Of a stretch of DNA of 64,000 nucleotides, positions 1 to 52,358 are shown piece after piece; the stretch's first letter is position 1; every line of letters begins with the position of its first letter. Where the stretch lies: contig JAFGRD010000141.1 in the NCBI GenBank assembly GCA_016935315.1, positions 12,616 through 76,615 of the forward strand. The letters are read 5' to 3'. The notes beneath the pieces are model-generated. The model was not told the DNA's origin, ran no database searches, and worked only from the letters and a program-made list of their open reading frames with translations. The translations under genes and the position numbers were made by a program. This DNA is from Pirellulales bacterium (GTDB taxonomy: Bacteria; Planctomycetota; Planctomycetia; Pirellulales; Thermoguttaceae).

Positions 1-2225
1 CCAAACTCCCCCCGAACGTAGAAATAGATGCGGCTGTCGTCGCGGCTCCACAGGGTGTGGTTGATGAAGAGGTCGCGGCCCTTGGTGTCCATCGTGCGCG
101 CCAGGTCGGCGAAGGAGACGAGCAGGCGCTTCTCGCCGGTGGCCATGTCCACGAGGAACACGCCGTCGTTGGCGGGCGCCGCCTCGGCCGAATTCCAGTC
201 GAAGGCGCCGGGATAGCCCGTAACCGGGCGAAGCCGCGCCAAACGTCCATAATTGACCCCGAGGAAATAACCGCCGCACTGGGCGACGCCGGAGTTGCCC
301 AAGGGCGTGTCGTCGAATCGGTATTCGCGGACACGCTTGCGGGCAACGACGTCGTAAACAACGGTGAAGATCTTGTGCGTCTCGGGGTCGCGGTCATTGA
401 AGATCAACTCCCGCGAGGCGGCCGCGGGATTCCAGTAGAACATCGTGCCCTGCTGAGAATTCCACGCACGCGACTCGTCGACCTTTTCGATGCGGTTGCC
501 GTTTTGCGTGTCGATGAGAACGACATCGGCCGGCTCGGCGGGATTCGGCATGCGGTCTTGAAATGAAGTACGCAGGGCGACGATGTAACGGCAATCCCCG
601 CTCCACGGGATGTTCTGCACGTGGCCGATGTAGCCGAAGAAGTGGTGGCTGGGGCCGTGCGTAAGCTGGCGGATTTGCACATGGAACTCGGCTGCCGCGG
701 CGGGAGGCCGACAGAACCGGGCTCCCGTTGGTCGCCCTCGCGCATTGACTGTGCAAGCGTCCATGGAGCCCTGCGCACGTTGCAGGCTGAGGGTTTTTGA
801 AAGGCGTTTGACCACGTCCGGGTGCCGTGCGGAGACGTCCTCGGTTTCGCCGAGGTCGTTTTGAAGGTTGTACAGTTGCGGTTTGAACTGATTCGCTCTG
901 GGGCCTTGATTTCCAGGGGGCTTCCTTCCGGGCCGTGCGAGTGGCACACCCTCGATCCATTTCCACGGCCCACTGCGGATGGCGTAAACGCCGTTGGCAC
1001 TCTGAAACAGCAGGTCTGTGCGCACCGGCTGGTCCGGCGTGCCGATGAAGGTGGACAAGACATTGACGCTGTCCGGCGCGGTGGTGGTGCGGTCGAGATG
1101 GGTTTCCCCGACTGCGGCCGCCACCGTCGCAAAGATGTCCACCACGCCGATCATCTGGTCGCTGGTGCTGCCGGCGGGGATTCTGTCGGGCCACCGCGCG
1201 ATGAACGGCACACGGAAACCGCCGTCCCACACGTCGTGTTTTCCGCCACGCAGCGCGCCGTTGATCTTCAGCCCGGCGTCCATGGCCTGCTTCTGCGTGT
1301 TGCTCTTGCTGCGCTCGGCGACCACGCCGCCGTTGTCGCTGGTGAAGATGACCAGCGTGTTCTCGACAGCCTCGATGTTCTCCAGCGCGCCCAGGATGCG
1401 GCCGACGCTGAGATCGAGGTCATGGATGAAATCACCGTAGGGGCCGGCTGGACTGGTGCCGCTGGTCCGTGCCGACGGCGTGACAAGTTCATGCACCGCC
1501 ACCGGAGCAAAGTAGAGAAAGAACGGCGCACTTTGCCCCTGCTGCTTCTCCAGCCACGCCACGGCGCGATCGGTCAGCTGTTCCATTGTCTTCGGGTCGT
1601 CGCGCTCGGGTGCATCGAGGCCGAGCTTGCCGGGGGACGGCGTGAGTTTATCCGACCGCAGGCCGAAGACCTTGTGATTCTCGACGAACACGCGCGTGAT
1701 GTCGTTGTGGTTTTGCGGCACGGCGAACTGATAGTCGAAACCGAGTTCCAACGGGCCTGGCTTCAGTTCCTTGGTATAATCCACGCGGCTTTCCGTCCCG
1801 TATCCGAGGTGCCACTTGCCCACCATCGCCGTGGCGTAGCCATGTTTCCCAAGCAGCGAGGCAATCGTCGGGCGGCTGGTCTCGATCAGCAGCGGGTCCA
1901 TTGTGTTCGCCACGCCGCCGTGATTCAGCCGGGTCCGCCAGCAGTAGCGGCCGGTCAACAGGGCATAACGCGTCGGCGTGCAGACCGACGACGGCGTGCT
2001 GGCGTCCGTGAACCGGCGGCCTTCGCGGGCAAGGCGGTCAAGGTTCGGCGTGCGGATGAGCCCCGGGGCCGCGCCGTAACAGCCGGCGCTGCCGTAGCCG
2101 TAGTCGTCGCTGAGGATGATCACAATGTTGGGCTTGGACGAGTCCGCAGTGGCAGGCGATGTCGCAGATCCGGCCCACACCGCGACGATCGCGAGACAAC
2201 TGGCGATTCGTAGAACGGTCTTCAT
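1..2225 (-). CDS. Sulfatase (N-terminal, formylglycine-dependent) continuing in frame, with no stop, through a repeat-element copy into a C-terminal beta-propeller region (TolB-like or oligogalacturonide-lyase-like). Partial: runs off the window start.
   Basis: Minus-strand ATG at 2225 overlaps the upstream stop (ATGA). Translation gives MKTVLRIASCLAIVAVWAGSATSPATADSSKPNIVIILSDDYGYGSAGCYG...SSVCTPTRYALLTGRY, i.e. a signal peptide and the CxPxR sulfatase signature. The frame is open for 741 codons to position 1. It is absent from the ORF track because no stop occurs inside the window. The C-terminal region reads ...LTHGPSHHFFGYIGHVQNIPWSGDCRYIVAL...LVDMATGEKRLLVSF.... Confidence 0.7.
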   Translation of the reverse strand, partial: MKTVLRIASCLAIVAVWAGSATSPATADSSKPNIVIILSDDYGYGSAGCYGAAPGLIRTPNLDRLAREGRRFTDASTPSSVCTPTRYALLTGRYCWRTRLNHGGVANTMDPLLIETSRPTIASLLGKHGYATAMVGKWHLGYGTESRVDYTKELKPGPLELGFDYQFAVPQNHNDITRVFVENHKVFGLRSDKLTPSPGKLGLDAPERDDPKTMEQLTDRAVAWLEKQQGQSAPFFLYFAPVAVHELVTPSARTSGTSPAGPYGDFIHDLDLSVGRILGALENIEAVENTLVIFTSDNGGVVAERSKSNTQKQAMDAGLKINGALRGGKHDVWDGGFRVPFIARWPDRIPAGSTSDQMIGVVDIFATVAAAVGETHLDRTTTAPDSVNVLSTFIGTPDQPVRTDLLFQSANGVYAIRSGPWKWIEGVPLARPGRKPPGNQGPRANQFKPQLYNLQNDLGETEDVSARHPDVVKRLSKTLSLQRAQGSMDACTVNARGRPTGARFCRPPAAAAEFHVQIRQLTHGPSHHFFGYIGHVQNIPWSGDCRYIVALRTSFQDRMPNPAEPADVVLIDTQNGNRIEKVDESRAWNSQQGTMFYWNPAAASRELIFNDRDPETHKIFTVVYDVVARKRVREYRFDDTPLGNSGVAQCGGYFLGVNYGRLARLRPVTGYPGAFDWNSAEAAPANDGVFLVDMATGEKRLLVSFADLARTMDTKGRDLFINHTLWSRDDSRIYFYVRGEF
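671..763 (-). mobile_element. MITE/REP-like interspersed element, copy A. Its 3' half has diverged. It lies in frame inside the sulfatase/propeller ORF.
   Basis: The plus strand carries the reverse complement of TTGACGCTTGCACAGTCAATGCGCGAGGGCGACCAACGGGAGCCCG...CCTCCCG shared with the copies at 5681, 29346, 31107, 35988, 46409 and 54424. A single base change makes ATGGACGC in place of ATTGACGC. Confidence 0.75.
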
Positions 2226-2514
2226 TTGGCTGCTTTCCTTTTGCGGAGTTTTTTCTTCGACTGCACTTTCTGAAGGCGGTGCCAGTGTTTCTCCGGGCGT
2301 TTTTCATCCCCGAGGCCCGCCCGGCCGTCGAGAATGTCGCCCGGCGACCGCAACCGGCCGTCTGCAGACAATCCATCAAGCGTCCGAAGTCGCGTCCACG
2401 TGATTGCACCATCGGTACTCGCGTGCTGCATGATCGTGAACATCCGGTTTGTTCGGCAAGTGCGTCACCGATACGCTCTGCACCGGAAACGCTAGACCAA
2501 GTGGCGCTGTCCCA

Positions 2515-5511
2515 TTACTTCTCGTCCGGCAGAACCGCCGAGAGTGGCGCGTCGCTAAGTGTGCTGCATGGCGGCATCACGAAGCCCGGCATGTCGGCTC
2601 GGGGCCGGTCTCTGAGCAAGTTCTGTACCGGTACGAACACCGAGAGGAGCTTCTGATAGTCGTCGTCGCCTTTGTCGGCGAAGACGGCCTTGCCGCACGC
2701 CTCGGTGCCACCGGCCGACTTGGCAAGCGGGGCTAACATGAAGTTGTTTCTCTCGGGCTTGAGCATCCGCGTGTAGAACTTTCGGGGCACGCCATTCTCG
2801 TGGCACTCGACACAACGGCCGGAGGCGATTTCGTTGAGAGTCGCATCGAGATCCTCGGGCATCATTCGCCGGCTGCCGAGGTGGCGTTTGTGGTTCGAGG
2901 ACGAGGTGCCGTAGTAGGGCACGTTCAAATCGAGCCAGTTGTAGACGCGGCGGCGATCGGCGTCGGGCACGTTGACCCGGGGCTTGCCGTCTTGGTCCGG
3001 ATGCCCGGTGCGAATGATGTCGGCCAGCAGGCTCGCGGGCGAACCCCAGCGGCGCGGGGCGATCTCCAGCACGTTATGCCCGGAGCCATTGATCGTCCAG
3101 ATCCACTCGGCATAAGGGCTCATGCCGCGCACGGCGTCGCCGCCCGGCCCAACCGGGCTGCCGTGGTGGATCCAGCCGTTCTCGGATTGTGTGCCGGTTC
3201 GTGCCAGAACGTCGTACGAGACGTTGAAGAAGTCCGTCTTATCGCCGGTCAGATCGACGCCGTTGGGCTGGGTGCGCTCGTTGTGGCACTCGATACAATT
3301 CCGGTCCAGCACCGGTTGTACCACGGCGGGGTAGCTGAACCCGACAACCCCCCACTCGGGCGGAATCAGTTCCTGGGGAGTGCCACGCATCCCCGCCCGA
3401 CTGGCGGGGCGCGACACGGCCGCGTTGCGGTCGGCGTGGCAACCGACGCAGCCCTGCACTTCGCCCGGCATCATGTGCGTGAAGCTTCTCATCCGCTGCA
3501 GGGCCCGGCCCTCGGCATCAAGCGCCATGAAATAGATCGGGACCTCGGCGGGGACCTTGAAAGCGGCGGCCCCGTTCTCGTCCACGTCGGCGAAGCCCCA
3601 GAGCTTCTTTGGTGCGTAAGTCGCTCCACACGAGACGACAGGAAACTGGAATCCGAACACCGCGACATTCCGCATGCGTTTCCCGTCGGGTGTCAGGTTG
3701 TTTTGCGGCGAGTGCGTGCTCTTCTCAAGTTCTTGCACCACGGCAATCTGCTTGATCTCGCCCCGCTTCACGTGCGGTTCGAGCCCGTGGTAAACGTCCC
3801 GCATGAAGACCGTGGCCCAGGCCCCCGAAACGCTGCCGTCCTCGGGCAGCACGGCCAACCGATCCATCGTGGCGCCGGCAACCACCGGGGGCGGCGGCGT
3901 CTTGCGAATCGGCTGCGCGCTGTAATAGCCCATGCCGTCTTGCGGAAACAAGAGCGTAATGGCGGTGGTGTCGAAGCCGCGCAGTTGAACGGCTCCGTTG
4001 TTGGCCACGAGGAACTTGTTGTTCCCCACGGCGAACGGTTTTTCGTACGGACCGCGTAGCCCGTTGCCGTAGACCCCGGAAATCCCATAGAGTTCGATCT
4101 CGGGTGTCAGGTTGGTTATGGCCTCCTTGGAGTTGGCACCCTTGGTCGGATCGATCAGGACGATTCCACCCCGACACGGCCCGTTGTGGTTGGTCGCCGT
4201 GGCGACGATCTTGTTCGTCCCGGGAACCGGCTGGGCGTCCATGAACGTACCAGGCGCCAAGACGCGATTGCCAAAGAACCCCGACAGGCCCGTGCCGTCG
4301 GGGTTGATCGCCCAAAGGCTCTGGATGGGGCAGGCGGCCCGATCGACGTATTCCCAGCGGGTAAAGACGATGCGGCCGTCGTTTAGGACCGACGGCGTGA
4401 AGTCCATCAGGTAATTGGCCGAGAGCCGTTTCTGGTCGGTCCCGTCGGCCTTCATGCGATAAACGACCGGCGAGGTGACGACGTAACAATAGGCGTAGGC
4501 GGGTTTGCGGTCGGAGATAAACGCGATGCCGCCATCCGGCAACCAACACGGATCGAGGTTGTTAAACGTGCCTCGCGTCAGTTGCTTCAGGCCGGTGCCG
4601 TCGATGTTGATCGTGAAGACGTGGTAGTTGCTGGCTTCGTCCGCGTAGCGCGAGATGTCTTCGATATGGGCGACCGGGTTGGAACCGACGTGCCCGCCTC
4701 GTCGCATGGCAAAAACCACTTCCTTGCCGTCGTACGACAGATCGGCTGTGGTGATCATGCCTTCGCCGGCGTCGAAGATGCACTTCAACTGGCCGCCGGA
4801 TTCGTTGGGCGAAAAGACGTACAACCCTCCACCGGGGCGAAACCCCTCGACGTGGTAGACGTAAACGTGCGAGATGTCCAGTGGCTTGCGCTTCACCAGC
4901 AGGATGTCCGTGAATCCCAACTTGCCGTCGAGCAATTCGCGCCGCAGCGCCCGAGCCTCGAGCGTCTTCTCCTGCGGCGGAATCCGCATCGCGGCCAACT
5001 GCTTCTCCGTCACCGGCGAGGCGAACACGGCAATCTCCGCTGCTCCCGGGTTCGGCGAGGTGGGATGCGAGGAGAGGAATTCAATGCGAATCTTGGTGAC
5101 CTGCCGTTTCGGGAAATCGATCCTCTGCGGTCCTCGCCGATGCTCCAGGGCGCCCCGCACGGTCGGTTTCTCTTCGTCGTTCAGGTAGACCTCGTAGTCC
5201 TTGAAGGACTCCAGTAACGCGCTGGTCCGGCGGGCGTAGTAGATGATCTGGGCCGCCTCGACCGGTTTGTCCCATTCAAGTGTGAACCACCCCGTCTGCG
5301 TCGCCTTGACCGCCCAGTCGTCGTCCTGAAGGAACTCCGACGGGACGGCGCCGCCGATAGCCATTTCCGCACGAAACTCATTGCTGAACTCGCTGCTGGC
5401 CGAAACCGTCGCCCTAGGCGCCAGGTTGATCGGCTCTGCGGCGTGAATTGCCGTTGTCGCGAGCACGACGATGGCACCATAGAGCGCGCGTGCCGTCCGC
5501 GTCTCGGTCAT
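2515..5511 (-). CDS. Secreted multidomain protein: F5/8-type-C (discoidin)-like N-terminal region, PD40/TolB-like beta-propeller, and a C-terminal c-type cytochrome region with three CxxCH motifs.
   Basis: ORF 2515..5661; the likely start is the internal ATG at 5511 (MTETRTARALYGAIVVLATTAIHAAEP, a signal peptide). NPDGTG-type PD40 repeats are present. Haem motifs: GCVGCHAD, NCIECHNE, RCVECHEN. Confidence 0.8.
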   Translation of the reverse strand: MTETRTARALYGAIVVLATTAIHAAEPINLAPRATVSASSEFSNEFRAEMAIGGAVPSEFLQDDDWAVKATQTGWFTLEWDKPVEAAQIIYYARRTSALLESFKDYEVYLNDEEKPTVRGALEHRRGPQRIDFPKRQVTKIRIEFLSSHPTSPNPGAAEIAVFASPVTEKQLAAMRIPPQEKTLEARALRRELLDGKLGFTDILLVKRKPLDISHVYVYHVEGFRPGGGLYVFSPNESGGQLKCIFDAGEGMITTADLSYDGKEVVFAMRRGGHVGSNPVAHIEDISRYADEASNYHVFTINIDGTGLKQLTRGTFNNLDPCWLPDGGIAFISDRKPAYAYCYVVTSPVVYRMKADGTDQKRLSANYLMDFTPSVLNDGRIVFTRWEYVDRAACPIQSLWAINPDGTGLSGFFGNRVLAPGTFMDAQPVPGTNKIVATATNHNGPCRGGIVLIDPTKGANSKEAITNLTPEIELYGISGVYGNGLRGPYEKPFAVGNNKFLVANNGAVQLRGFDTTAITLLFPQDGMGYYSAQPIRKTPPPPVVAGATMDRLAVLPEDGSVSGAWATVFMRDVYHGLEPHVKRGEIKQIAVVQELEKSTHSPQNNLTPDGKRMRNVAVFGFQFPVVSCGATYAPKKLWGFADVDENGAAAFKVPAEVPIYFMALDAEGRALQRMRSFTHMMPGEVQGCVGCHADRNAAVSRPASRAGMRGTPQELIPPEWGVVGFSYPAVVQPVLDRNCIECHNERTQPNGVDLTGDKTDFFNVSYDVLARTGTQSENGWIHHGSPVGPGGDAVRGMSPYAEWIWTINGSGHNVLEIAPRRWGSPASLLADIIRTGHPDQDGKPRVNVPDADRRRVYNWLDLNVPYYGTSSSNHKRHLGSRRMMPEDLDATLNEIASGRCVECHENGVPRKFYTRMLKPERNNFMLAPLAKSAGGTEACGKAVFADKGDDDYQKLLSVFVPVQNLLRDRPRADMPGFVMPPCSTLSDAPLSAVLPDEK

Positions 5512-5680
5512 TTGTTCGGCTCCCGTCACCATGAAGTTGTGTTGCGGCAGGAAACGGCGGTAGCTACGCTTTGTGCGACACACCCTCCGCACTTGCAGGC
5601 GGCAAGACGCACCCATTCCGCCTCTTCCGTTCCGCTCAAGAACCGCGCACACGCGGAACATGACCTTCAGTATAGTCGTT

Positions 5681-5730
5681 TATTGACGCTTGCACAATCA
5701 ATGCGCGAGGGCGATCACTTGAACGTCAAT
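5681..5730 (+). mobile_element. Truncated copy B of the MITE-like element (5' half only).
   Basis: tattgacgcttgcacaatcaatgcgcgagggcgatcac matches the 5' TIR and first hairpin of the element; the 3' half is missing. Confidence 0.6.
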
Positions 5731-5979
5731 CTGATGCCACCAGTCGTCACCGTAGTCGAACCAATAGCCGAAGGGCTGGTCGACCTCGAAGATAACGTGG
5801 TGCCGATCTCCAAGCGTCTGATCGCTGCGGATCTGGATCGTCCGGCTGGTCTCCTTGCCGGCGAACTTCTGCGGCACCGGCCCGCCGATTCGAGACACCT
5901 CAAACGTGTACAGCCGGGTCTCTGTTGTCCAGCCGGCTCGCTGCGGATCGAAGACCGCCGCTGCCTCGCATTCGTCATC
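5698..5979 (-). pseudogene. Remnant of a plasmid pRiA4b ORF-3-like (PRiA4_ORF3) domain protein. Only the C-terminal part is present and there is no ATG.
   Basis: The frame opens immediately after the methyltransferase stop. It reads ...RLYTFEVSRIGGPVPQKFAGKETSRTIQIRSDQTLGDRHHVIFEVDQPFGYWFDYGDDWWHQIDVQVIALAH. The YxFDYGDDWxHxI block is the family's conserved motif. The first start is GTG at 5898. The stop codon lies inside repeat copy B. Confidence 0.4.
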
Positions 5980-6703
5980 TCATTTTCCGCGAGATGCACA
6001 TTCCCCAGCGCGACGCATCCACAAAAGCCGTCTCCAGGCTCGGATTCGATGTGATTGCCTGGAAGTAGTCGTGCATCATGTGAGCTTGGCCCGAGGAATC
6101 GTGGGCGATAATCAGCCCGCCGGTACGTACCAGCGGCAAGAGTCTGTCGAGATAGTCCGTGAAGCCTTCCTTCTCGGCGTCGAGCAGCAGCAGGTCGATC
6201 GGGCCGGCCAATTTCTTGATGGTCTGGTGTGCGTCTCCCTCGACCAACGTCACCAGGTCTTCGACCTCCGCGCGCTTGAAGTTATCCTTGGCCAAGGCGA
6301 TTCGCGTCGGATTGATCTCATGACTCGTGAGCGTGCCGCCCGTGGACCGCAACGCCAAGGCGAACCACATTGCTGAATAGCCGTTGGCTGTGCCGACTTC
6401 CACGACCTGCTTTGCCCCCAGAGTCTCGGTTAGCATCCTCATCAGCCGGCCATCCTCCGGCAGAATGTTGCCCATCCCGCGCGACTGATTCGCGTACATG
6501 CCTTCCATGACGGCAATGATCTTCTCTTCGGCTGCATCCCTGGGCTTTGGATGGCGCGAAAGGAATTGGCGCGACACTTCCTCCGCCGTCGGGTGCCTCG
6601 CTTGCGCCGTCTTCGCAGGGGCTTGGGCCAGAAGCGACGGAACAAGAAGTCCGAAGGTAACAAGCGTTCCGGTTCCACATGACAACCATCGTGGTACTTG
6701 CAT
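5975..6703 (-). CDS. Class I SAM-dependent O-methyltransferase (caffeoyl-CoA OMT-like, family 3) with a signal peptide.
   Basis: MQVPRWLSCGTGTLVTFGLLVPSLLAQA signal; VVEVGTANGYSAMWFALAL SAM-binding motif; LLLLDAEKEGF...LLPLVRTGGLIIAHD typical of OMT family 3. Confidence 0.8.
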   Translation of the reverse strand: MQVPRWLSCGTGTLVTFGLLVPSLLAQAPAKTAQARHPTAEEVSRQFLSRHPKPRDAAEEKIIAVMEGMYANQSRGMGNILPEDGRLMRMLTETLGAKQVVEVGTANGYSAMWFALALRSTGGTLTSHEINPTRIALAKDNFKRAEVEDLVTLVEGDAHQTIKKLAGPIDLLLLDAEKEGFTDYLDRLLPLVRTGGLIIAHDSSGQAHMMHDYFQAITSNPSLETAFVDASRWGMCISRKMR

Positions 6704-6858
6704 GATTTGCTCCTGTGTTCAAGAATCGATAGCCTCCATCGACGAAGGCACACGACGACGCCTTGGCCCGTAAGACCGCACGCCATCGAGTGTCTACCCA
6801 GCGCCGACAACGCGTCCTTCGTCATTCGCCACTCGCCGTTTCTCCTGGGTCCGCAGCC

Positions 6859-7050
6859 TCACTCGCTGCGGCCCTCAATGATGTCTATGAGCTCGAAGGG
6901 CTGGTCGTAGCCGTTGATCTCCTCTGTATCGACCTCCAGGAAATCGACCAGTGCCTCCTGTTGCTCGTCGTCAAGAAGCTGCAAAACGTTGGCCAAGGTC
7001 GGTGGGTCGAAAATGGAGAATCTCTGCTTCTCTCGGTCGGTATTGGGCAT
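6859..7050 (-). CDS. Hypothetical small acidic protein (63 aa).
   Basis: ORF MPNTDREKQRFSIFDPPTLANVLQLLDDEQQEALVDFLEVDTEEINGYDQPFELIDIIEGRSE. No homology recognised. It lies in a lower-GC stretch. Confidence 0.3.
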   Translation of the reverse strand: MPNTDREKQRFSIFDPPTLANVLQLLDDEQQEALVDFLEVDTEEINGYDQPFELIDIIEGRSE

Positions 7051-28022: not shown

Positions 28023-28985
28023 CTACCCGCCGTCGCCTTTCGCCTTCCCTTTGCCCTCGACGGCAGGCGGTTCGTATTCGAACTCCTTCCACACCATGGG
28101 GCGCCGCAGGTAGGGTTCGATCCGCAACACGACTTCGCCGCTCTGGAAGATCCGTACCGTGCCGTTGGTCTGGCTAACGGTAACGGCCACCGCATTGGTC
28201 GCCCGGCTGACGGCGGCGGCGGCCCAGTGGCGGGCCCCCAGCCCTTTCGAGAGCGTTACCTCGGCGGCCGAGCAGTCCAGGTATCGACAGGCCGCTTCCA
28301 CCGTGCCGTCGGCCGAGACGATGATCGCCCCATCCATCTGGGCGATCTCCTTAACGCCCTCCCGCACCCGGACGTCAGCCAGGGTCCGTTCCTTGCGGTT
28401 GTAGCCCTTAACCGGGTCGAAACCGGCTGGACGGCTGCAGGCCAGGACCTTTCGGGCGTCGCCGACGACGAACAGCGTGCCGACCGGCTTGCCCTCGCGA
28501 CCCTCGCGGCCGATCTCCACGGCCAGATCGACCACCATCTTCAGCGTATCCAGGGGCACGCGGGTCTCCAACTGCCGCAGATCGCGCCCGGTGAGCCGGT
28601 TGAGGTGTTCGTCGAGGCTGATCAGGCTGACCGAATCGAGTGAATCGGCGTCGAACCCGCTGTAAAGGGCCACCACGCACGCGCCCGGGGCCAAGAGATC
28701 GTCGGCCACCGCCTCCAGCACCGACTGGGTCAGCCGCTCGTAGATGGGGCTGCCCGGCATGTCGATCTCGACCGTCTCCAATCCGGCTTGCCTGGCGCCT
28801 TCGAGCTCGTCGGCCGCGCCGCCGGATACCAGCACTTTTTCGTCGCCACTGAGCTTCTTCAACCGCTGCCAATCGGCCGGCCCCTCCAGCAGCAAGAGAA
28901 TCACGTCGGCCCCGGCCGATTCCGTCAACCCGACCGCCAGATTGAAGAGGGTCTTGAATTGTTCGGTGAATCGTAACGGCTGCAT
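28023..28985 (-). CDS. Diadenylate cyclase (DisA_N / DAC domain; makes c-di-AMP) with an N-terminal regulatory domain.
   Basis: DAC core ...IAQMDGAIIVSADGTVEAACRYL...LGARHWAAAAVSRATNAVAVTVSQTNGTVRIF (DGA[IV]I and GxRHRAA-like motifs). Start at the internal ATG 28985. Confidence 0.75.
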   Translation of the reverse strand: MQPLRFTEQFKTLFNLAVGLTESAGADVILLLLEGPADWQRLKKLSGDEKVLVSGGAADELEGARQAGLETVEIDMPGSPIYERLTQSVLEAVADDLLAPGACVVALYSGFDADSLDSVSLISLDEHLNRLTGRDLRQLETRVPLDTLKMVVDLAVEIGREGREGKPVGTLFVVGDARKVLACSRPAGFDPVKGYNRKERTLADVRVREGVKEIAQMDGAIIVSADGTVEAACRYLDCSAAEVTLSKGLGARHWAAAAVSRATNAVAVTVSQTNGTVRIFQSGEVVLRIEPYLRRPMVWKEFEYEPPAVEGKGKAKGDGG

Positions 28986-29345
28986 CCGCGTTCGGCCTGT
29001 CGGTTGCCGGGTGTCCTCTTCAGGTTGATGGTGGCGGGGTTGAATGCCAGAACCGCGATGCAGTTTGTGCCAGCGCTTTCCCGCCGAGGCCGTGCGAGCA
29101 GCCCCCGATCCGTCTGAATGTGCTCGCGCGGCACTCACGCCGGAACCACCCCCTTCGGCAACGCGTCTGCCCCACTCGCGTAACAACCCACATATCCACT
29201 GTATATTACGGTTTTTTCCGTGCCAGAGCAACGCTAAATAACGCTGCGCGATGGTGGGAACTGGCCGGTTTCCGGGAGCCGCCTCCCGGAGGGTGGCAGC
29301 GGCGCTGGAGATTTCCCGAATCGTGCAGGCCTGTCCATTGGCGTT

Positions 29346-29449
29346 TGTACGGTCAATGCGCGAGGGCGACCAACGGGGGCCCGATTCTTCCGGGCCCCCG
29401 TTGGTCGGCCTTGATCATTCCCGATGCAGACATCAATAGAACATTTGTC
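29346..29449 (+). mobile_element. MITE-like element copy C, full length, closest to consensus.
   Basis: cattggcgtttgtacggtcaatgcgcgagggcgaccaacgggggcccgattcttccgggcccccgttggtcggccttgatcattcccgatgcagacatcaatag. The TCA of the 3' TIR, read on the other strand, is the TGA stop of the HEAT gene. Confidence 0.85.
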
Positions 29450-30137: not shown

Positions 30138-30538
30138 AGATGGTCTTTGCCTTGCAGTGGCCCGCGGGCGGAGTGCATCGCACAGATGAGAGGCGAGACT
30201 ATAGCAGGGGTGCCCTTCAATGCCAAGATGAGTCGTGGCAAGCGGCAGAAGGTCTGTACACGTTTCATAAAGCTACACAAACGGCGCAGATCAGGAAATA
30301 ATCTCGGCCCGTTGATCGACGATTTGCGGCCTCAGGCGGCAATAGCCGCAGCCCGCCGACGAATAGCCATTGGCGGAAGCCGGCGGCCGGCGGAAGCCTG
30401 CCCGAGGGGCGGAGGCTCTCACGACGCCCGGCCAGAGGCGTCCCCAGCCGCCCGTATCCCACGCCGTCGGCTTCCGCCCTCGTCCATCTCTGGCTATGAT
30501 GCACGAAACGACCCCACCGCCCTAACAGGGAGGCCCAG

Positions 30539-31048
30539 ATGCCCGAGCCACGAGACCATACCGAGGATCGTAACTGGATCGAAACCATCTTGCGGTATAT
30601 TCCCGGTTTTCGGGGCTACCTCGAGAAGGAATACCGCCGCGAAAGCGACGACCTGCAGCGGGACTGGCTGGCCGATCGCCTGCAGCGGTCGAAACGGGCG
30701 ATCGACGATTTGAGCCGGCCGTTGGCCGACGCGGGGCAGATCGACCTGTTGCCCCAGGTCGACCGGTTGCGTGGAAGGCTCGACAAGCTGATTGGGCGCA
30801 TCCGCGGCGCGATGCAAGGCTACAGCGGCTTTTTCGACCTGGTCCGGGTCCGCGAGGACCTGTTGGACCGCGTCTACGAGCACGACGTGGCGTTGATGAG
30901 GCAAGTCGACACCTTGGCCGAGGCCATCGAAGACCTGCCCAATCAGCAGGAACAACTCGTCGGCGCGCTCTCCGAACTGCTCCGCCAGACCGACGACCTG
31001 GACGACGCGTGGGACCAGCGTGAAGACATGCTCAAGGGGCTTCAATAG
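30539..31048 (+). CDS. Hypothetical coiled-coil protein.
   Basis: 169 aa, charged, with heptad-like pattern; directly upstream of the SPFH gene. Confidence 0.5.
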   Translation: MPEPRDHTEDRNWIETILRYIPGFRGYLEKEYRRESDDLQRDWLADRLQRSKRAIDDLSRPLADAGQIDLLPQVDRLRGRLDKLIGRIRGAMQGYSGFFDLVRVREDLLDRVYEHDVALMRQVDTLAEAIEDLPNQQEQLVGALSELLRQTDDLDDAWDQREDMLKGLQ

Positions 31049-31106
31049 ATGGACTCGCACGATTCAGGCAGTTTCCAACTCCGCCGCCATCGTTCCGAAG
31101 GCGGCT

Positions 31107-31213
31107 TTATTGACGCTTGCACACTCAATGCGCGAGGGCGACTAACTTGGAGCCCGACTTGTCCGGCCTCCCATTGGTCGGCCTGGGTTATTCACAATGC
31201 GAACATCAGTAAG
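31107..31213 (+). mobile_element. MITE-like element copy D.
   Basis: ttattgacgcttgcacactcaatgcgcgagggcgactaacttggagcccgacttgtccggcctcccattggtcggcctgggttattcacaatgcgaacatcagtaag. Intergenic, between 31048 and 31305. Confidence 0.8.
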
Positions 31214-31304: not shown

Positions 31305-32696
31305 ATGGCCATCCGTTTGGAAGTCATCAAGTTTTTCGATGAGACGAACCGGTCGATCGTCCATCGCGAGCCGCCACAGGGCTCGGCCGACATCAAGCTC
31401 GGCGCCCAGTTGATCGTCCAGGAGAACCAGGAGGCGATCTTCTTCCGCGACGGCAAGGCGATGGACTCCTTCAGCCCCGGCCGGCATACGCTGACCACCC
31501 AGAACGTCCCGATCCTCACGCGCCTGCTGACGATCCCCTGGCAGGAATCTCCCTTCCAGGCCCAGGTCTACTTCATCGGGAAGCAGACGTTTCTCGACCA
31601 GAAATGGGGCACCCGGCAGCCGATCACCTTCCGCGACGCCGAGTTTGGCATGGTGCGGCTGCGGAGTTTCGGCAAATACTCCTTCCGCGTGATCGACAGC
31701 CCGCTGCTGTTGAACACGCTGGTGGGGACACAGGGCAAATACACTACCGATGAAATCAGCTCGTACCTGAAGGACCTGATCGTCTCCCGGCTGACCGACC
31801 TGCTGGGCACGTTGGGGACCAGCCTGCTGGACTTGCCGGCGAAGTACGACGAAGTGGCCGCCGGGACCCGGGCCAAAGTAAGCGAGGAGTTCGGCAAGTA
31901 CGGCCTCGAGCTGGTCGACTTCTTCATCAACGCGATCACCCCGCCCGAGGAAGTGCAAAAGGCCATCGACGCCCGAAGCGCCATGGGGGCGGTGGGCGAT
32001 CTGAACGCTTTCATGAAGTTCCAGGCCGCCAACAGCATGGCCAAGCTGGCCGAGCAGGGCGGCGGCGGGGCAGGGGCCGGCATGGGGGCCGGTGCCATGG
32101 GTATGGGTATGGGGGCCGGCTTCGGCATGATGATGCCCGGCATGATCCAACAGGCCATGGCCGGAGGCGCACATCCCGCCCCCGGCGCTCCCCGACCCGC
32201 GACCCCGGCGCCCGGCGCGGCCGCGGTCGCGGGCGCTGCGGCCGGCGCCGCTGCCGCGGGCCCCGACTTCGCCAACCTGGCCCCCGTCACCACCGACCCG
32301 AAAGCCATGGTCCGCTCCGTGGCCGGCGCGGCCGGCCACGCGATTGCCGAATCGGGCGACACCCTGCAGATTACAGTCCCCATCGGCGAACTGCGAAAAC
32401 AGCTGGTCACCGTCGAGTTCGGCAAGACCGACAAATCGGGCCATTCGATGGTCAACTACTGGTCGATCTGTGGTCCGGTGACCGAGCAAAACGCCATGAA
32501 CCTGTTGCGCTACAACACCGAGATGGTCCACGGTGCCTTCGCCGCCAGGAATATCGGCGGCACCGAGATGCTGGTCATCCAGGCCAACCAAATGGCCGAA
32601 ATGCTCGACCCTCTGGAAGTCAGCCGCGTGCTCTCGGCGGTCGCCTGGCAGGCCGACCAAGTGGAGCAGAAGCTGGTCGGCAGCGACGAGTACTGA
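31305..32696 (+). CDS. SPFH/band-7 domain protein fused through a Gly/Ala/Met-rich linker to a C-terminal YbjN-like (T3SS-chaperone-fold) domain.
   Basis: N-terminus [51 protein letters not shown] (COG4260-type SPFH). Linker [30 protein letters not shown]-terminus ...[47 protein letters not shown].... Confidence 0.65.
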
Positions 32697-34693: not shown

Positions 34694-35851
34694 ATGCCGA
34701 CGGAGCAAACCCGCGTCTACAGCCTGCTGATTCTCATCGCATTGTGCTCGGCTGTGGCCGGTCCGGCCTCGGCCCTGGACCACGTGACGTTGCGCCGCGA
34801 TGGCCGGGAGATCCAGGTCGATGGACGGCTGCTGGTCACTGCCCAGGACGGAGGGTTGCTGATGCTGGCCGCCGACGGCGTGCTCTGGGCCGTCCCACCG
34901 GAAGAGCAGATCCACCACACGGCCGACGACACGCCGTTTGAGCCGCTTTCGCCCGAGGCCATGGCCGAGCGGCTGCTGGACGAGTTGCCCGACGGGTTCG
35001 ACGTCCACCACACGGCCCACTATGTGATCGGTCACGACACTTCGCGGGTCTACGCGCAGTGGTGCGGGGCGTTGTTCGAGCGGCTGTATCGGGGATTCAC
35101 CAACTACTGGAGCCGCAGAGGATTCAAGCTCCACGAGCCCGAGTTTCCCCTGGTGGCCATCGTGTTTGCCGACCGCAACGCCTACGCGAAGTTCTCGCAA
35201 CCGGAATTGGGCGACGCGGCCGGTTCAATCATCGGTTACTTCAGTCTCCGCACCAACCGAATGACGATGTACGACCTGACGGGCATCGAGACGTTGAACC
35301 GCTACGGCACCGCCCGCGGCACGACCGCCCAAATCAGCCAGATCCTCGCTCAGCCCGACGCCCAGCGAACCGTTGCGACCGTGGTGCACGAGGCCACGCA
35401 CCAGATTGCGTTCAACTGCGGGCTGCACACGCGCTACAGCGATTGTCCGGTGTGGTTCAGCGAAGGGATCGCCGTCTATTTCGAGACGCCCGACCTGGGG
35501 AGCACCAAGGGCTGGCGGAGCATCGGCACGGTGAACGGACCGCGGCTGCTGCGTTTTCACCAGTACCTTGCCGGCCGGCCGGCGAACTCGCTGGAGACGC
35601 TGATCGCCGACGACAAGCGGTTCCGCGACCCCGACCAGGCCCAGGACGCCTACGCCGAGGCCTGGGCACTGACCTACTTCCTCATCCGGCAGCGCCCCTC
35701 GCAGTACGTAGCCTATCTTGAGCTGCTCTCGCAGAAGAAACCGTTACTCAACGACGGTCCGCAGGGCCGGCTGAAGGAGTTCCAGAAGACCTTCGGCGAC
35801 TGGAGGAAGCTGGACGCCGAGTTCCTGCGGTACATGACGCGGGTCCGCTGA
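34694..35851 (+). CDS. DUF1570-family secreted protein (putative HExxH metallopeptidase-like).
   Basis: Signal peptide; VVHEATHQIAFN HExxH motif; the architecture is common in Planctomycetes. Confidence 0.6.
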   Translation: MPTEQTRVYSLLILIALCSAVAGPASALDHVTLRRDGREIQVDGRLLVTAQDGGLLMLAADGVLWAVPPEEQIHHTADDTPFEPLSPEAMAERLLDELPDGFDVHHTAHYVIGHDTSRVYAQWCGALFERLYRGFTNYWSRRGFKLHEPEFPLVAIVFADRNAYAKFSQPELGDAAGSIIGYFSLRTNRMTMYDLTGIETLNRYGTARGTTAQISQILAQPDAQRTVATVVHEATHQIAFNCGLHTRYSDCPVWFSEGIAVYFETPDLGSTKGWRSIGTVNGPRLLRFHQYLAGRPANSLETLIADDKRFRDPDQAQDAYAEAWALTYFLIRQRPSQYVAYLELLSQKKPLLNDGPQGRLKEFQKTFGDWRKLDAEFLRYMTRVR

Positions 35852-35987
35852 TCCCGCACCCCGGCCGCTTGCTCCCCCAGCGGGCTTCGGCTATGCTGTA
35901 CAGGACGGCTTCAGGGTCGCGACCGACGGCGCCCGCACCGGGCGGGACCCCGTGACGCGTGTTGAAGACGCCTCCCGCAATCGGTGC

Positions 35988-36091
35988 CTGATTGGCGTTT
36001 GCACAGTCGATGCGCGAGGGTGACCAACAAGAGCCCGATTCTTCCGGCCTCCCGTTGGTCGGCCTTGATCACCAGCACTGCAGACATCAAT
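35988..36091 (+). mobile_element. MITE-like element copy E.
   Basis: gattggcgtttgcacagtcgatgcgcgagggtgaccaacaagagcccgattcttccggcctcccgttggtcggccttgatcaccagcactgcagacatcaatag. Intergenic, between 35851 and 36227. Confidence 0.8.
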
Positions 36092-36226
36092 AGCGCCTAT
36101 CCCGGAACGTTCTCCCCTAGCCCTGCTTGCGGGGAAAGGAACCGGGGGGAGGGGTTTTGGAACAGGCTCTTTCGCCACCGCCACCAAAAGCACACTCCCA
36201 CCTGCCCCAGTTTCAAGGAGCCCACC

Positions 36227-43281: not shown

Positions 43282-46200
43282 ATGAAAGCCGCCTTCTGGT
43301 CGTGGGTCCTCTGGTGCGCCGTCGCTCCCCAGGTGCAAACATCCCAGACGCCCGAAACCCTGCTCTATATCCGCACCACGCCCTCCGGGGCCGAAATCTC
43401 CCTGGACGGCAAGCCGCTGGGCACGTCCGACGGGCTGTTTCCAGTCAAGCCGGGAACCTACAAGATCGTCGTCGACTTGCAGGACCACCAGCCCAAGCAG
43501 CAAAGCATCACTCTCCGCGACGGGCAAATCACGCGGATCGAGTTGGAATTGCAGGCCACAGCCGGACGGCGCCGCGCGACGGCGCGCCCGCTGATTCCAC
43601 GGCCTGCCTTCGGCCGCTTCGACGTTCGCCTCGAGCTGCGGGTCGCCCCGGCAGCGCCCGGATGCGAGTTCGCCACACTTGCCAAGGAACACGTCGCCCG
43701 GTACCGGAAGGACCTCCAAACAAAGGGGCCGCTTGCCGGCCGCGTGCCCGAGGCGCTTTACGCCTGGTTCGAGCTGCGGGTCGAGCCGTCGCCGGAACTG
43801 ATCACCGCCGAGTATCAGGGGGCGACCTACGTCCTGCTGTCGAACCGCCCCGACGAGGTCATGCTGGCCTCGCGCGACGGTGCCGACGCCTGGGGACTGA
43901 CGTCGGTCGACGTGACGGCCGACGGTCGCGGAGCGCCGGCCATCGGCGCAGAGATGGACGAGGCCGGCGCGAGGCTTCTGGCGGCCTTGAGCGGGTCGCA
44001 CCTCGGCCAGCGCGTGGCGATACTGCTGTGCGACCAGGTACTGGCAGCGCCGGTCGTCCGCGGCAAGATCTCCGAGAGGATTGCGATCACCGGACAGTTC
44101 GAGCGCCGCGAGGTCGAAGAGCTGGTCGCGGCGTTGAGGGCCAGCCTGGCCCGGCCCGGCGCCGGTGCGCCGACCGCCACAGTCGAGAGCCGCGTGTTGG
44201 CCGACGCCTGTGCCCAAATGTTGGGCGACTTTGTCGCTGCGCGGAAGCAGGCCGGCGGCAAGATCCCCGACGATTGGGATTCTCCGCAGTTCGTTCCCCG
44301 AACGATCGAGCAGTGTAAGCGGCAGTATCCCGGCCCGTTTGCCGTGACGCCGGAAGAGGAACGCCGGTTCACCGCGGGCGAGTTTGATGACGCGGCTGCT
44401 TCGCGACGCGCCGGCGAGGCCATCCAATCGTTGACCAAGGACAAGGTCGAGTTGCCCGCCGGAGCCCAGTACCTCATCGACGAATTCCAGACGGGAAGGC
44501 TCCAAGGGGCCCGGCTGGAACTGGCCGCGCGGTTACTTGCGGCACAGCTCCAGGACACCGCTCAAATGCAGCACCGCTCTGTCCAGACGGCCCTCAAGCT
44601 CCTTGAGACCTCCTTGGCGTGCTATCAGCTCGACCTGGGAGTGTATCCGACGACTGACGAGGGCTTGGCCGCGCTGACCAGCAAGCCGGCCACCGCCGGG
44701 ACCCAAGAGAAATGGCAAGGTCCCTATGCCAGCGAGTTGCCCCGAGATCCTTGGGGCCACGACTATCGATACCGCCGGCCCGGCAAGCACCAGCCGGATT
44801 CGTTCGACCTCTGGTCGGTCGGCCCGGACGGCCTCGACGGCACGGCGGACGACGTGGGCAATTGGCCCGAGCACGACGATGCCGCGGACGACAACCGGCC
44901 GGCCGACCCGAACCGCCGCCCGCGATACTTCGTGCGTCTGGTGTTGGGCGACGACACCATGACCTTGGAAGGTGCCACGACCACGTGGGAGGAGTTGCCC
45001 GAGTTGCTGGAGCGAGTCCCCAACCGCGGACAGACCGTGTTGGAGATTGCGGTCGCGGCGGAGAAGCCAAGCGACAAGCAGCGTGCCGACGCGATGCGTC
45101 GGGCCAGCGGCCTGGCCCGGCGTTTCGGGTTTGAATACCCCAGTATCGTCGGTGTGCATCCCCTGGGGTCAAGGGGGGCGCCGCCCCAGACCGACTCCCC
45201 CAAAGCGGCCCCAGCGCCGGAGACGTCGGACGGAGCGGCCAAGGAGGTCTTGCGGCGCTACAGCCAGGCCGTTTGGGCCGAGGCATTGCCCCGGCTCGAA
45301 TCCGCGTCGGGGCCCGAGGCCACGGAGATGATCCAACAGGTCGCCATGGAGGCGGCGCAGCGCCACATTCTACCGCAGAAAGACCTCGTTGCCCGATACG
45401 CCCTGAGTCGAATGCCCGACGCCGAGCCGGTCGATGCTTCGCAATGGACGGAGAAAGTGGTGTTCCGCCCCGAGGACGATGCGGCCGATTCCCCGCGGCA
45501 ACCGACGGCCTTCTGGCATCCGATCGTGGTGGCAGCCGGACTGCAGCAACAGGTGATGGTCAAGGACATGTCGGCGAAGCGTTTCGGCACGTTTGCCATG
45601 TCGCGCTTCTACGCCCCTGCGCCGACCACCGTCTTGGATCGCAACCTGGACCATCCGGTGATCGCGACGGCCTTCGGCGACCAGTTGCTGGTGGCTCATC
45701 TGCGCCGGGCCGACGACGGTCTTTACCACGGCGAGCAGGTCCGCTGGCTGACAAAGCGGCCCGCGGCCACGCAGGATTACTTCCTGCTGCCGGTCGGCGC
45801 CACGCCGGCGCAGCGGCTCGTTCACACCTTCAGCAAGATCGTCTGGAACGACTTGCTGCCACGGTTGGCCGGGCAGGAGCCGGAAGTCCTCGCAAAGGAA
45901 TTGGGGAGGTTTTCCCGTCGCTTTTTCGTCAAACACCACGAGCTGCTGAAGGCCGAAGGCGAGCGGCTCCTGGCCGAATTGCCGAAGTCGGAACCCATCG
46001 ACTTCTCGCAATGGACATCCCGCTTCCCGGAAACCACCGACGAAATGTCTGAGGCGATGCGGCACGCGATGGCCTCGGAGCGGGCTGATATCGGTATCGG
46101 CGATGTGCACCTGTGCTTCAACCCGGTCCAGATGGCGGCCATGATGCAGCAAACCACGCTGGCCAGGCTGGCCGGCCCGGGAATGCTCGGGCTGCGTTCG

Positions 46201-46410
46201 ATGGTGCGGGCGGCGGCCGTGTATCCCTTGGACGCGATCCTCGACGGCGATCCCCAACGGCCCGCCATTGCCACACGGATGGGCGACGAGCTGTCCATCG
46301 TCCGCTTGCGTCGCCAGCCCAACGGTGCCTACGAATTCGACCGGATTGAGTGGCTGGTCCGTGCGAAGGCCGATTCGAAAGCGACTAAGGCGGCGCCCCG
46401 TCGCAAGTGA
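43282..46410 (+). CDS. Large secreted chimeric protein: N-terminal PEGA domain, SecD-P1-head-like domain, internal GspG (T2SS pseudopilin)-like domain, ExbD/TolR-like domain, and a C-terminal region of unknown function.
   Basis: PEGA: LLYIRTTPSGAEISLDGKPLGTSDGLFPVKPGTYKIVV. SecD-like: ...QRVAILLCDQVLAAPVVRGKISERIAITGQFERREVEELVAALRA. GspG-like: ...YQLDLGVYPTTDEGLAALTSKP...WQGPYASELPRDPWGHDYRYRRPGKHQPDSFDLWSVGPDGLDGTADDVGNW. ExbD-like: ...YFVRLVLGDDTMTLEGATTTWEELPELLERVPNRGQTVLEIA.... Confidence 0.7.
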   Translation: MKAAFWSWVLWCAVAPQVQTSQTPETLLYIRTTPSGAEISLDGKPLGTSDGLFPVKPGTYKIVVDLQDHQPKQQSITLRDGQITRIELELQATAGRRRATARPLIPRPAFGRFDVRLELRVAPAAPGCEFATLAKEHVARYRKDLQTKGPLAGRVPEALYAWFELRVEPSPELITAEYQGATYVLLSNRPDEVMLASRDGADAWGLTSVDVTADGRGAPAIGAEMDEAGARLLAALSGSHLGQRVAILLCDQVLAAPVVRGKISERIAITGQFERREVEELVAALRASLARPGAGAPTATVESRVLADACAQMLGDFVAARKQAGGKIPDDWDSPQFVPRTIEQCKRQYPGPFAVTPEEERRFTAGEFDDAAASRRAGEAIQSLTKDKVELPAGAQYLIDEFQTGRLQGARLELAARLLAAQLQDTAQMQHRSVQTALKLLETSLACYQLDLGVYPTTDEGLAALTSKPATAGTQEKWQGPYASELPRDPWGHDYRYRRPGKHQPDSFDLWSVGPDGLDGTADDVGNWPEHDDAADDNRPADPNRRPRYFVRLVLGDDTMTLEGATTTWEELPELLERVPNRGQTVLEIAVAAEKPSDKQRADAMRRASGLARRFGFEYPSIVGVHPLGSRGAPPQTDSPKAAPAPETSDGAAKEVLRRYSQAVWAEALPRLESASGPEATEMIQQVAMEAAQRHILPQKDLVARYALSRMPDAEPVDASQWTEKVVFRPEDDAADSPRQPTAFWHPIVVAAGLQQQVMVKDMSAKRFGTFAMSRFYAPAPTTVLDRNLDHPVIATAFGDQLLVAHLRRADDGLYHGEQVRWLTKRPAATQDYFLLPVGATPAQRLVHTFSKIVWNDLLPRLAGQEPEVLAKELGRFSRRFFVKHHELLKAEGERLLAELPKSEPIDFSQWTSRFPETTDEMSEAMRHAMASERADIGIGDVHLCFNPVQMAAMMQQTTLARLAGPGMLGLRSMVRAAAVYPLDAILDGDPQRPAIATRMGDELSIVRLRRQPNGAYEFDRIEWLVRAKADSKATKAAPRRK

Positions 46411-46509
46411 TGTCCGCATTGCGAATGATCCAGGCCGGCCCACGGGAGGCCGGGAAAGTCGGGCTCCCGTGGGTCGCCGTCGCGCATTGACGGTGCCCAC
46501 GTCAATAAG
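46409..46509 (-). mobile_element. MITE-like element copy F (reverse orientation).
   Basis: The plus strand carries gtgatgtccgcattgcgaatgatccaggccggcccacgggaggccgggaaagtcgggctcccgtgggtcgccgtcgcgcattgacggtgcccacgtcaataag. The TGA stop of the 43282..46410 gene lies inside the element terminus. The element sits between convergent genes. Confidence 0.8.
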
Positions 46510-46516
46510 ATGCCGG

Positions 46517-49202: not shown

Positions 49203-50012
49203 ATGAAAGGGAAGACCATTTTTGGGGCGCTCCTGGTGAGCGTCGCCCTATGCAGCCAGGGGTTCGGTTTCGAGCTTCTGGACCGGATGCTAGGGCTGAA
49301 CTGCGGTGGCTGCGGCAGTTGTGCTACCTGCTGCGAGCCCGCATGCTGCGAGGCGCCGAAGTGCTGCGCGCCGGAACCCGCTTGCTGCGAAGAGCCTGCT
49401 TGCTGCGAGCCCTCGTGTTGCGATCCGTGCTGCAAGCCGAAGTGCGACCTGTTCGGCGGACTTAAGGGACTGCTCGCCTGCAAGAGTTGCTGCGATCCGT
49501 GCTGCCAACCGAGTTGTTGCGAGCAACCCACGTGCTGTGCAGAGCCTGCTTGCTGCGAGGAACCGGCTTGCTGTGAGAAGCCGGCCTGCTGCGACCCGTG
49601 CTGCAAGCCGAAGCTCAGGGACCTGCTGGGTATCTGCAAGCCGAAATGCTGCCAGCCCACGTGCTGTGCAGAGCCGGCTTGCTGCGAGGAACCGGCTTGC
49701 TGTGAGAAGCCGGCCTGCTGCGACCCGTGCTGCAAGCCGAAGTGCAACCTGCTGGGGCTGCTCGACGGCCTGTTCTGCTGCAAGAAGAAGTGCTGCCAGC
49801 CCGCTTGCTGTGAACCGGCCTGCTGCGAGGCGGCATGCACCTCGTGCAGCGGCTGCGGCGGCGGTACGGTTGAGCAAGCCGCGCCTGCGGCGGCCCCCGC
49901 GGCCGGCGAAGAGGCCCCCGTGCCCGATCCCCCGGCTCCGCCCGATCAGTCGGCTTCGGTGAGGCCCAGCCGCAGCATCCTGCAGGCTAGCCGCATCATC
50001 GTCCGGCGCTAA
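49203..50012 (+). CDS. Secreted ultra-cysteine-rich repeat protein (about 70 Cys; CCxPxCC / CC[EKQD]P[AST]CC repeats; keratin-associated-protein-like).
   Basis: Signal [20 protein letters not shown]. Then ...[39 protein letters not shown]... repeated three times. C-terminal Ala/Pro-rich tail. An AGGAG Shine-Dalgarno precedes the ATG. An internal 120-bp near-perfect tandem duplication spans about 49535-49745. Confidence 0.7.
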
Positions 50013-52121: not shown

Positions 52122-52358
52122 CTGCTGCGCTTTCTTCGTTCTCTCGCGAGACAGACCTCGATCCAAGCCCATTGGATTATGCCCGGTCGATCTGCTATGA
52201 TCAAGGGCCTGCGGTTTTCTGCCCGGAAGCCGAGAGCAAGCATTGGCGGTGGAACCGGGAACAGACGCGTCGTCGCGGGAGTCGCCAGACTCCAACGTGG
52301 TCGCCAAAGCACTGCGAAGGACGACGACCGCAGGAAAACCGGCTTGCCCAGGAGCCCT

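Follow-up and report, generated by a model that had tools for sequence, protein, structure and literature searches.

Fusions that join the open reading frame (ORF) of a MITE (a miniature inverted-repeat transposable element) in frame to a genomic ORF are not unusual, according to a review (PMC10969869) that covers the Rickettsia palindromic elements (RPEs), which form such fusions frequently, and also the ERIC and BOX elements. Here we describe a locus in which part of a short palindromic repeat lies between a sulfatase and a β-propeller within a single reading frame. It occupies the left edge of a 64,000-nt stretch of DNA from a Pirellulales bacterium (Planctomycetota; Thermoguttaceae; assembly GCA_016935315.1, contig JAFGRD010000141.1, positions 12,616 to 76,615 of the forward strand), which we refer to at its full length as the window. 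Comparison with orthologous loci suggests that the frame is a lineage-specific chimeric gene, probably formed when a repeat insertion was followed by a deletion between two adjacent genes.

The ORF that begins at ATG 2225 on the minus strand (1–2225) runs through 741 stop-free codons, at positions 3–2225, to the window edge. An earlier, sequence-only reading had reported this frame; its length is borne out by translation, and the peptides quoted there are correct. The 3′ end lies beyond the edge, with about 175 codons missing by comparison with homologues. Long open frames are common at the G+C content of the window (65%), and the codon-position G+C of this frame (0.62/0.48/0.79) follows the pattern of real genes. 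Both halves have strong homologues (E = 3e-291 in the sulfatase search and E = 4e-134 in the propeller search), so that chance in GC-rich DNA does not account for the frame: The fused frame noted earlier is real. Its product consists, in order, of a signal peptide, the sulfatase (486 aa to its end), a 22-residue linker (SMDACTVNARGRPTGARFCRPP), an AAAA remnant that brings the linker to about 26 residues in all, and the mature propeller. The predicted peptides that span the junction are AQGSMDACTVNAR and FCRPPAAAAEFHVQIR.

The upstream half is a formylglycine-type (S1) sulfatase. Inspection and alignment with orthologue N termini place a predicted Sec-type signal peptide at residues 1–27 (2145–2225, minus strand; MKTVLRIASCLAIVAVWAGSATSPATA|D, ending ...ATA/D), which is the sole export signal remaining in the fused frame. 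The sulfatase domain extends over residues 28–486 (768–2144, minus strand), as delimited by Pfam and by orthologue alignment; the Pfam Sulfatase model PF00884 matches residues 32–373 (E = 9e-50, 170 bits against a cut-off of 25). The formylglycine motif C82-T-P-T-R86, encoded at 1968–1982, has all five residues invariant in a 12-sequence alignment, and both the signal peptide and the motif had been recognized in the sequence-only reading. In a collection of 5.8 billion proteins, the closest sulfatases are 483–495 aa long and 70–88% identical, and the listed orthologues all stop at ...QGFSRP or a close variant (...LQRxQGFSRP-stop). The window protein tracks them to ...LQRAQG and then departs, which moves the end of sulfatase homology from about 790, as previously placed, to G486 at 768–770. 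The normal C terminus is absent: The ancestral protein's final four residues (FSRP) have been lost along with the stop. Elsewhere, members of this sulfatase clade carry extra domains (P0005, P0006, and P0113), in P0006 and P0113 at the C terminus.

Positions 3–689 (minus strand) encode the first 229 mature residues (EFHVQIRQLTHGP...) of a PL22-like seven-bladed β-propeller that lacks a start codon and signal peptide of its own. The region had been described as TolB-like or oligogalacturonide-lyase-like, and its identity as a β-propeller is confirmed: The best structural neighbor is oligogalacturonate lyase of PL22 (PDB 3c5m and 3pe7), which shares the seven-bladed fold at only 14% identity. 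Profile searches of PDB sequences with the propeller did not retrieve the PL22 chains; Pfam returned no family match, only sub-threshold WD40-type hits at E ≤ 1, and NCBIfam returned no match. The propeller family itself is large (974 hits, no Pfam family), and its listed relatives are all stand-alone proteins of about 400–417 aa, with a signal peptide of their own in 12 of the 12 aligned. Invariant residues include H238, H286, E288 (in GGHPEW), and R378/D380. By alignment, the window protein keeps the whole mature N terminus from the former cleavage site onward, and the first β-strand (DVEIRQL in the model, with a predicted local distance difference test score, pLDDT, of about 96) is intact. 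Fusions within the family are found in P0364, with a 3-keto-disaccharide hydrolase, and in P0362, with a β-lactamase-like domain; among the longer family proteins, none carries a sulfatase as N-terminal domain, and those other than these two show nothing recognizable. Fusion to a 3-keto-disaccharide hydrolase domain (PF06439, formerly DUF1080) occurs in the propeller family (P0364) and in this sulfatase clade (P0005) alike, which at the level of predicted domains ties the two families together a second time, independently.

In related genomes, the two halves are separate genes. A look-up of the best sulfatase match led to a 195-kb JGI contig (L002, with a twin, L003), on which the sulfatase (P0001/L002, 88% identical) precedes a gene that shares 88% identity with the propeller part. 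A scan of one genome per species returned the same pair in a Thermoguttaceae metagenome-assembled genome (MAG; L004), with identities of 85% for the sulfatase and 88% for the propeller. Both loci read ...GGC TTT AGC CGC CCG TAG GAATCC ATG..., then about 110 nt, then ATG-CAA-CTC... (MQLLST...AAAA/DF...), and the propeller signal peptide ends ...AAAA/DF(D/N)V(E/D)IRQLT. A third instance, in an Opitutaceae MAG (L079, 9870–9900), pairs a 46%-identical sulfatase with the propeller through an overlapping stop and start, ATGA, which suggests translational coupling. Among 80 fetched loci, a sulfatase stands directly upstream of the propeller only in the L002/L003, L004, and L079 lineages, and in each of these, the two halves of the window frame match separate, complete, adjacent proteins. 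The pair is thus, as judged from the three genomes that keep it, a small conserved cassette of what are always two predicted genes, and it occurs in two phyla; MAGs of Thermoguttaceae and Pirellulaceae are the closest relatives that were found. The question raised earlier, whether orthologues have two genes or one, is answered by L002 and L004: two, with the element absent.

Two further features of the orthologous spacers concern the same junction. In L002 (7471–7593) and L004 (9851–9961), sulfatase and propeller lie in the same frame with one TAG between them, and reading on from it meets no further stop before the propeller; mutation of this one stop codon would be another route to a fusion. 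In L002, the propeller ORF as called (442 aa) begins at the ATG of GAATCC-ATG.

DNA alignment locates the rearrangement. L002 5963–7448 corresponds to window 2260–778 (by eye to 767) and L002 7634–8333 to window 703–3; the L004 breakpoints are equivalent. Between them, 63 nt (704–766) stand in place of 174 nt of L002 (7460–7633) or 159 nt of L004 (9840–9998), for net differences of 111 and 96 nt, both multiples of 3. What was lost is the sulfatase's final four codons with their stop, the spacer, the propeller start, and most of the propeller signal peptide, of which the AAAA at 690–703 (minus strand), from the former A-x-A cleavage region, is the remnant in DNA and protein alignments with L002 and L004.

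The 63 nt themselves are a half copy (copy A, minus strand) of a palindromic repeat about 105 nt long. Aligned with other copies, copy A runs from the left terminus through the left arm and loop and stops 10 nt into the right arm; it matches only the left-arm and loop side of the repeat, with 93–95% identity over 62 nt to copies on L087, L089, and L093 and 90–92% to those on L085 and L090. The repeat is not present at the orthologous site in the alignment with L002 and L004. Codons 487–508 (702–767) enclose copy A and form the 22-residue linker; about 21 element-derived residues therefore lie inside the predicted protein, as the sequence-only reading had proposed. That reading had taken the element copy to be 93 bp long and read in frame; the frame is confirmed, and the length is not: Only 704–766 belongs to the repeat, and the rest is native. 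The right third of that 93-bp stretch might have been a degenerate right arm, but we ruled this out on finding that it aligns with signal-peptide codons native to L002 and L004.

At the deletion junction, there is microhomology of 3–5 nt (element CCTCCCG, native CTCTCCG). The left end of copy A reads GGCTCCATGGACGC where GGCTTTATTGACGC is expected, with three mismatches, and the native sequence GGCTT-TA-GCC has its TA exactly at the element's present left end. No minus-strand frame contains a stop between 1153 and 406, and copy A is stop-free in every frame. A frameshift error in 660–800 that restores a stop after the sulfatase, raised previously as a way to undo the fusion, is excluded by these open frames.

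The repeat consensus, CCTTATTGACGCTTGCACAGTCAATGCGCGAGGGCGACCAACGGGAGCCCGGTTCTTCCGGCCTCCCGTTGGTCGGCCTTGATCATTCGCAATGCAnACATCAATAG, has inverted-repeat ends (TATTGAYG...CRTCAATA) and folds as a 37-pair imperfect hairpin with compensatory changes in six pairs. Seven copies occur in the 64 kb against 0.11 expected, and none of 100 shuffles reached 7; about eight further copies lie on JGI metagenome contigs (L084, L085, L087–L090, L092, and L093). At up to 4 mismatches in a 22-nt core, the repeat is absent from 80 related genome loci totaling about 1.25 Mb. Rfam assigned no family at gathering thresholds across the whole window, and at E ≤ 1, copy G gave only a meaningless microRNA match; a search of the literature on this repeat in Planctomycetes found nothing specific. 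The repeat has the traits of a MITE: It is small and noncoding, with terminal inverted repeats and dispersed copies, and, for copy A only, an empty site in relatives. Most copies are flanked by TA, possibly as part of the terminal repeat itself, and GGCTT-TA-GCC, the native target, is consistent with such a site. Within the window, no extra terminal-repeat matches flank a transposase. Read in the frame of copy A, a full consensus element gives FIDACTVNARGRPTGARFFRPPVGRP and then a TGA in the right arm.

From these alignments, we infer a two-step origin. The ancestral state would have been the two-gene cassette, with a secreted sulfatase ending ...QGFSRP-TAG and, in the same frame, a secreted PL22-like propeller with its own start and signal peptide. 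In the first step, the MITE-like repeat of about 105 nt would have inserted at the TA of GGC-TT/TA/GCC, in sulfatase codons 487/488, leaving a sulfatase with the element-coded tail FIDACTVNARGRPTGARFFRPPVGRP that ended at the right-arm TGA. In the second, a deletion of about 200 nt at 3–5 nt of microhomology would have reached from the right arm's beginning into the propeller signal-peptide codons. It would have removed the element TGA, the displaced FSRP-TAG, the spacer, the propeller start codon, and the hydrophobic signal core while keeping the frame. The sequence-only reading had offered, as one of two explanations, an insertion that removed the sulfatase stop and created a read-through fusion. 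Stop loss and fusion stand; insertion alone does not suffice, as a deletion is also required and only half an element is left, the stop having gone together with the spacer, the propeller start, and most of the signal peptide. In another possible history, the native TCCATG may have been kept, the element truncated at its left, and two deletions incurred, with the same product.

That the fusion is real and arose by insertion and then deletion, as a lineage-specific chimeric gene, we hold at a probability of roughly 0.6. Several observations weigh against it. The left terminus of the element has three mismatches to the expected GGCTTTATTGAC, and, given the alternative alignment as well, both where the element inserted and in what order the events took place are inferred rather than observed. 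The junction is carried by one assembly only; its 30-mer is absent from JGI metagenome contigs, and 185,579 species representatives do not include the source genome, the best match among them reaching 88%. Beyond the window edge are the final ~175 codons with their stop, where a downstream lesion is possible, and retention of frame, a 1-in-3 chance, is weak evidence of selection.

Both halves can also be compared for signs of decay. Window-specific substitutions number 41 in 486 sulfatase residues and 19 in 229 propeller residues, and all 87 propeller columns that do not vary among 13 outgroups are free of them. Ratios of nonsynonymous to synonymous substitution rates (dN/dS) for sulfatase and propeller are 0.17 and 0.16 against L002 and 0.15 and 0.13 against L004. 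By these sequence comparisons, no decay is visible in either half; the tests mostly reflect time before the fusion and are blind to a recent loss of function, which again tempers the case for a working gene.

Three other explanations were weighed, beginning with the age of the fusion. The sequence-only reading's other proposal was a natural sulfatase–propeller fusion with a linker domesticated from a mobile element, which here would be ancient. The adjacent pair is conserved in at least three lineages and a functional link is plausible, yet every relative examined has two genes with no element at their junction, and the element remnant is still 93–95% identical to copies from other metagenomes, indicating a recent event. 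Protein searches speak to the same point. A full-length search of the 5.8-billion-sequence collection found no protein covering both halves (maximum coverage 71% among the 120 listed), and a junction-centered query of 191 aa gave no spanning match; the apparent 87% coverage of that query by P0245 was discarded, as the alignment passes through P0245's own signal peptide. When 1.84 billion cluster representatives were scanned exhaustively with HMMER, using an equal-halves query, each of the best 150 matches had its strongest stretch within a single half (query 1–254 or 239–485); a fused relative with at least 40% identity in both halves should rank near the top of such a scan. With orthologues separate and the fusion not found in either large search, an ancient fusion is scarcely credible.

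The remaining two alternatives accept a recent date or deny the fusion altogether. A real lesion in a nascent pseudogene, whose product is unmade, misfolded, or degraded and whose locus will decay, is unlikely but is the main rival. The fusion is unique to this genome; the other six copies of the repeat are intergenic or overlap a stop, which makes a copy in a coding frame the exception; the conserved sulfatase C-terminal FSRP is lost; the linker has two cysteines and an odd composition; and in-frame continuity can be explained as a 1-in-3 accident. Nevertheless, neither half shows a stop, a frameshift, or a change at an invariant residue; substitution rates are equal in the two halves; the mature propeller N terminus is wholly retained; and both families accept fusions elsewhere, although these counterpoints do not bear on a very recent event. 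An assembly or sequencing artefact, or a minority variant, in which the true genome has two genes and about 200 nt were lost by the assembler or in the consensus, appears improbable. The unfused allele would then read ...GGCTTTAGCCGCCCGTAG... or contain a full element with its TGA. A repeat with seven copies in 64 kb can confuse short-read assemblers, and the junction rests on a single assembly: An independent Logan contig of 4.9 kb (L001, from SRR13394437) is 100% identical to window 1928–6864 (4937 nt) and ends 99 codons into the sulfatase, before the junction. Against an artefact, both junction flanks are the correct syntenic neighbors, which also rules out a chimeric join at the repeat; the missing stretch is unique and bounded by only 3–5 nt of microhomology, which graph assemblers normally do not skip; a simple indel can restore neither a stop, given frames open from 1153 to 406, nor the propeller start and signal peptide; and the deletion keeps frame.

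If the insertion–deletion origin is correct, the most likely consequence would be one polypeptide of about 900 aa exported by the sulfatase signal peptide, by which the propeller would still reach the periplasm, and two enzymes of one glycan-degradation step would act as a single bifunctional protein. The frame offers two conceivable internal starts: an ATG at 762–764 (minus strand), at the mutated element terminus (TATTGA to CATGGA), and a GTG at 678–680 (minus strand; residue 516). The peptide following ATG 764 is not signal-peptide-like, and GTG 680 has no convincing ribosome-binding site on inspection and would start a propeller without an export signal. As internal starts give a signal-less propeller and the aligned family members each have a signal peptide, the propeller would reach its normal compartment only within the fusion. 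The favored role is accordingly that of a predicted bifunctional exported enzyme acting on sulfated glycans. That the fusion does function, as a periplasmic sulfatase/PL22-like enzyme with a half-MITE linker and with the sulfatase signal peptide substituting for that of the propeller, is a tentative proposal that we regard as possible rather than probable.

A real and functional fusion would be a natural example of a palindromic repeat and a microhomology deletion welding two genes and rerouting the export of the second domain, a case, caught in the act, of a repeat element making a new multidomain protein. It would also provide a Rosetta-stone link between a large, widespread, uncharacterized family of secreted propellers and the breakdown of sulfated, probably uronate-containing, glycans. 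The adjacency of propeller and sulfatase in three lineages, the hydrolase fusion in P0364, and the PL22-like fold together point to a role in sulfated-glycan degradation. Should the junction turn out to be an assembly artefact or a recent lesion, nothing of wider importance follows.

Elsewhere in the window, the repeat occurs six times, either between genes or touching a gene at its stop codon alone; next to copies C and E, however, the limits of the genes are not firm. Copy B (5681–5718, plus strand) is an intergenic left-arm fragment 20 nt upstream of the start of gene 2515–5661 (minus strand); the remaining five are full length. Copy C (29334–29440, plus strand) is most probably intergenic: A 402-aa ORF at 28023–29231 (minus strand) stops short of it, and the stop-to-stop frame of that ORF is open to 29414. 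Copy D (31103–31211, plus strand) is intergenic between 30500–31048 and 31305–32696, and copy E (35975–36095, plus strand) lies downstream of gene 34694–35851, with the stop-to-stop frame of the next gene open from 35966. Copy F (46402–46522, minus strand) sits between convergent genes, and copy G occupies 54420–54526 (plus strand). The TGA of gene 43282–46410 (plus strand; 46408–46410) falls in the terminal inverted repeat of copy F (AGTGAT), and that of gene 52008–54428 (plus strand; 54426–54428) is the TGA of the terminal TATTGA of copy G. By sequence, copies F and G thus abut or supply predicted gene ends. The end of gene 30500–31048 (plus strand; 31042–31048), 55 nt before copy D, reads TTCAATAG and resembles the right terminus of the repeat, ATCAATAG; an older copy may have left it behind, or the likeness may be fortuitous.

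Within the repeat, an 18-nt left-arm core, TCAATGCGCGAGGGCGAC, is nearly invariant and far better conserved than the partner arm. It is found at 731–748 (minus), 5698–5715 (plus), 29353–29370 (plus), 31125–31142 (plus), 36007–36024 (plus), 46473–46490 (minus), and 54440–54457 (plus) as well as on the metagenome copies. This asymmetry suggests a sequence-specific role beyond the hairpin, for example as a protein-binding site or RNA motif. The JGI metagenome copies, on contigs of differing G+C content, are 90–95% identical.

Upstream of the fused frame, gene 2515–5661 (minus strand) encodes a 1048-aa protein with Pfam DUF7402 and HZS_alpha (hydrazine-synthase-alpha-like) domains and three CxxCH heme-binding motifs, and an identical copy of this protein was seen only on a Logan contig of SRR13394437. 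A promoter and terminator scan of window positions 1–2600 gave nothing over background. Farther along, an ORF at 49203–50012 (plus strand) encodes 269 aa with a signal peptide and about 25 Cys-Cys doublets in tandem repeats, a 30-letter unit occurring three times, and coincides with DNA repeat families D3, D5, and D8.

Each half of the fused frame has a described counterpart. The upstream half resembles S1 sulfatases (PF00884) in its full domain, C-x-P-x-R motif, signal peptide, and 85–88% identity to stand-alone orthologues, and differs from them in lacking the terminal FSRP and stop and running on into a second domain. For the downstream half, the nearest enzyme is PL22 oligogalacturonate lyase. 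The enterobacterial enzyme, Ogl, is cytoplasmic, whereas the aligned members of the propeller family carry signal peptides.

The repeat compares with MITEs that use TA targets (derived from IS630/Tc1-mariner elements): It is about 105 nt long and noncoding, with inverted ends, a long hairpin, many copies, an empty site, and a TA at the inferred target. It differs in that a parent transposase with matching ends was not found in the window, that the TA may be part of the terminal repeat, and that its 18-nt left-arm core is much better conserved than the partner arm. RPEs and intragenic MITEs such as ERIC and BOX share with copy A the pattern of a short, palindromic, multicopy repeat translated in frame that adds a peptide to a host protein. 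RPEs, however, insert whole and recurrently, with the single host gene otherwise undamaged; here, the element is down to 63 of its roughly 105 nt, about 160–175 nt of host sequence are lost, and two genes are joined by deletion, while the other six window copies are intergenic or overlap a stop, the sequence is unrelated, and the host is a planctomycete. Fusions of adjacent operon genes, of the Rosetta-stone kind, offer the other parallel: Neighboring, linked genes that are separate in relatives become one ORF, in this case from genes that are already in the same frame in L002 and L004. What sets the locus apart from these is a junction made of a repeat element and a downstream partner that, without a signal peptide of its own, relies on the one upstream. 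In-frame MITE fusions and adjacent-gene fusions are both well documented, and the locus combines the two with an exchange of export signal. What is new here is the instance and not the principle.

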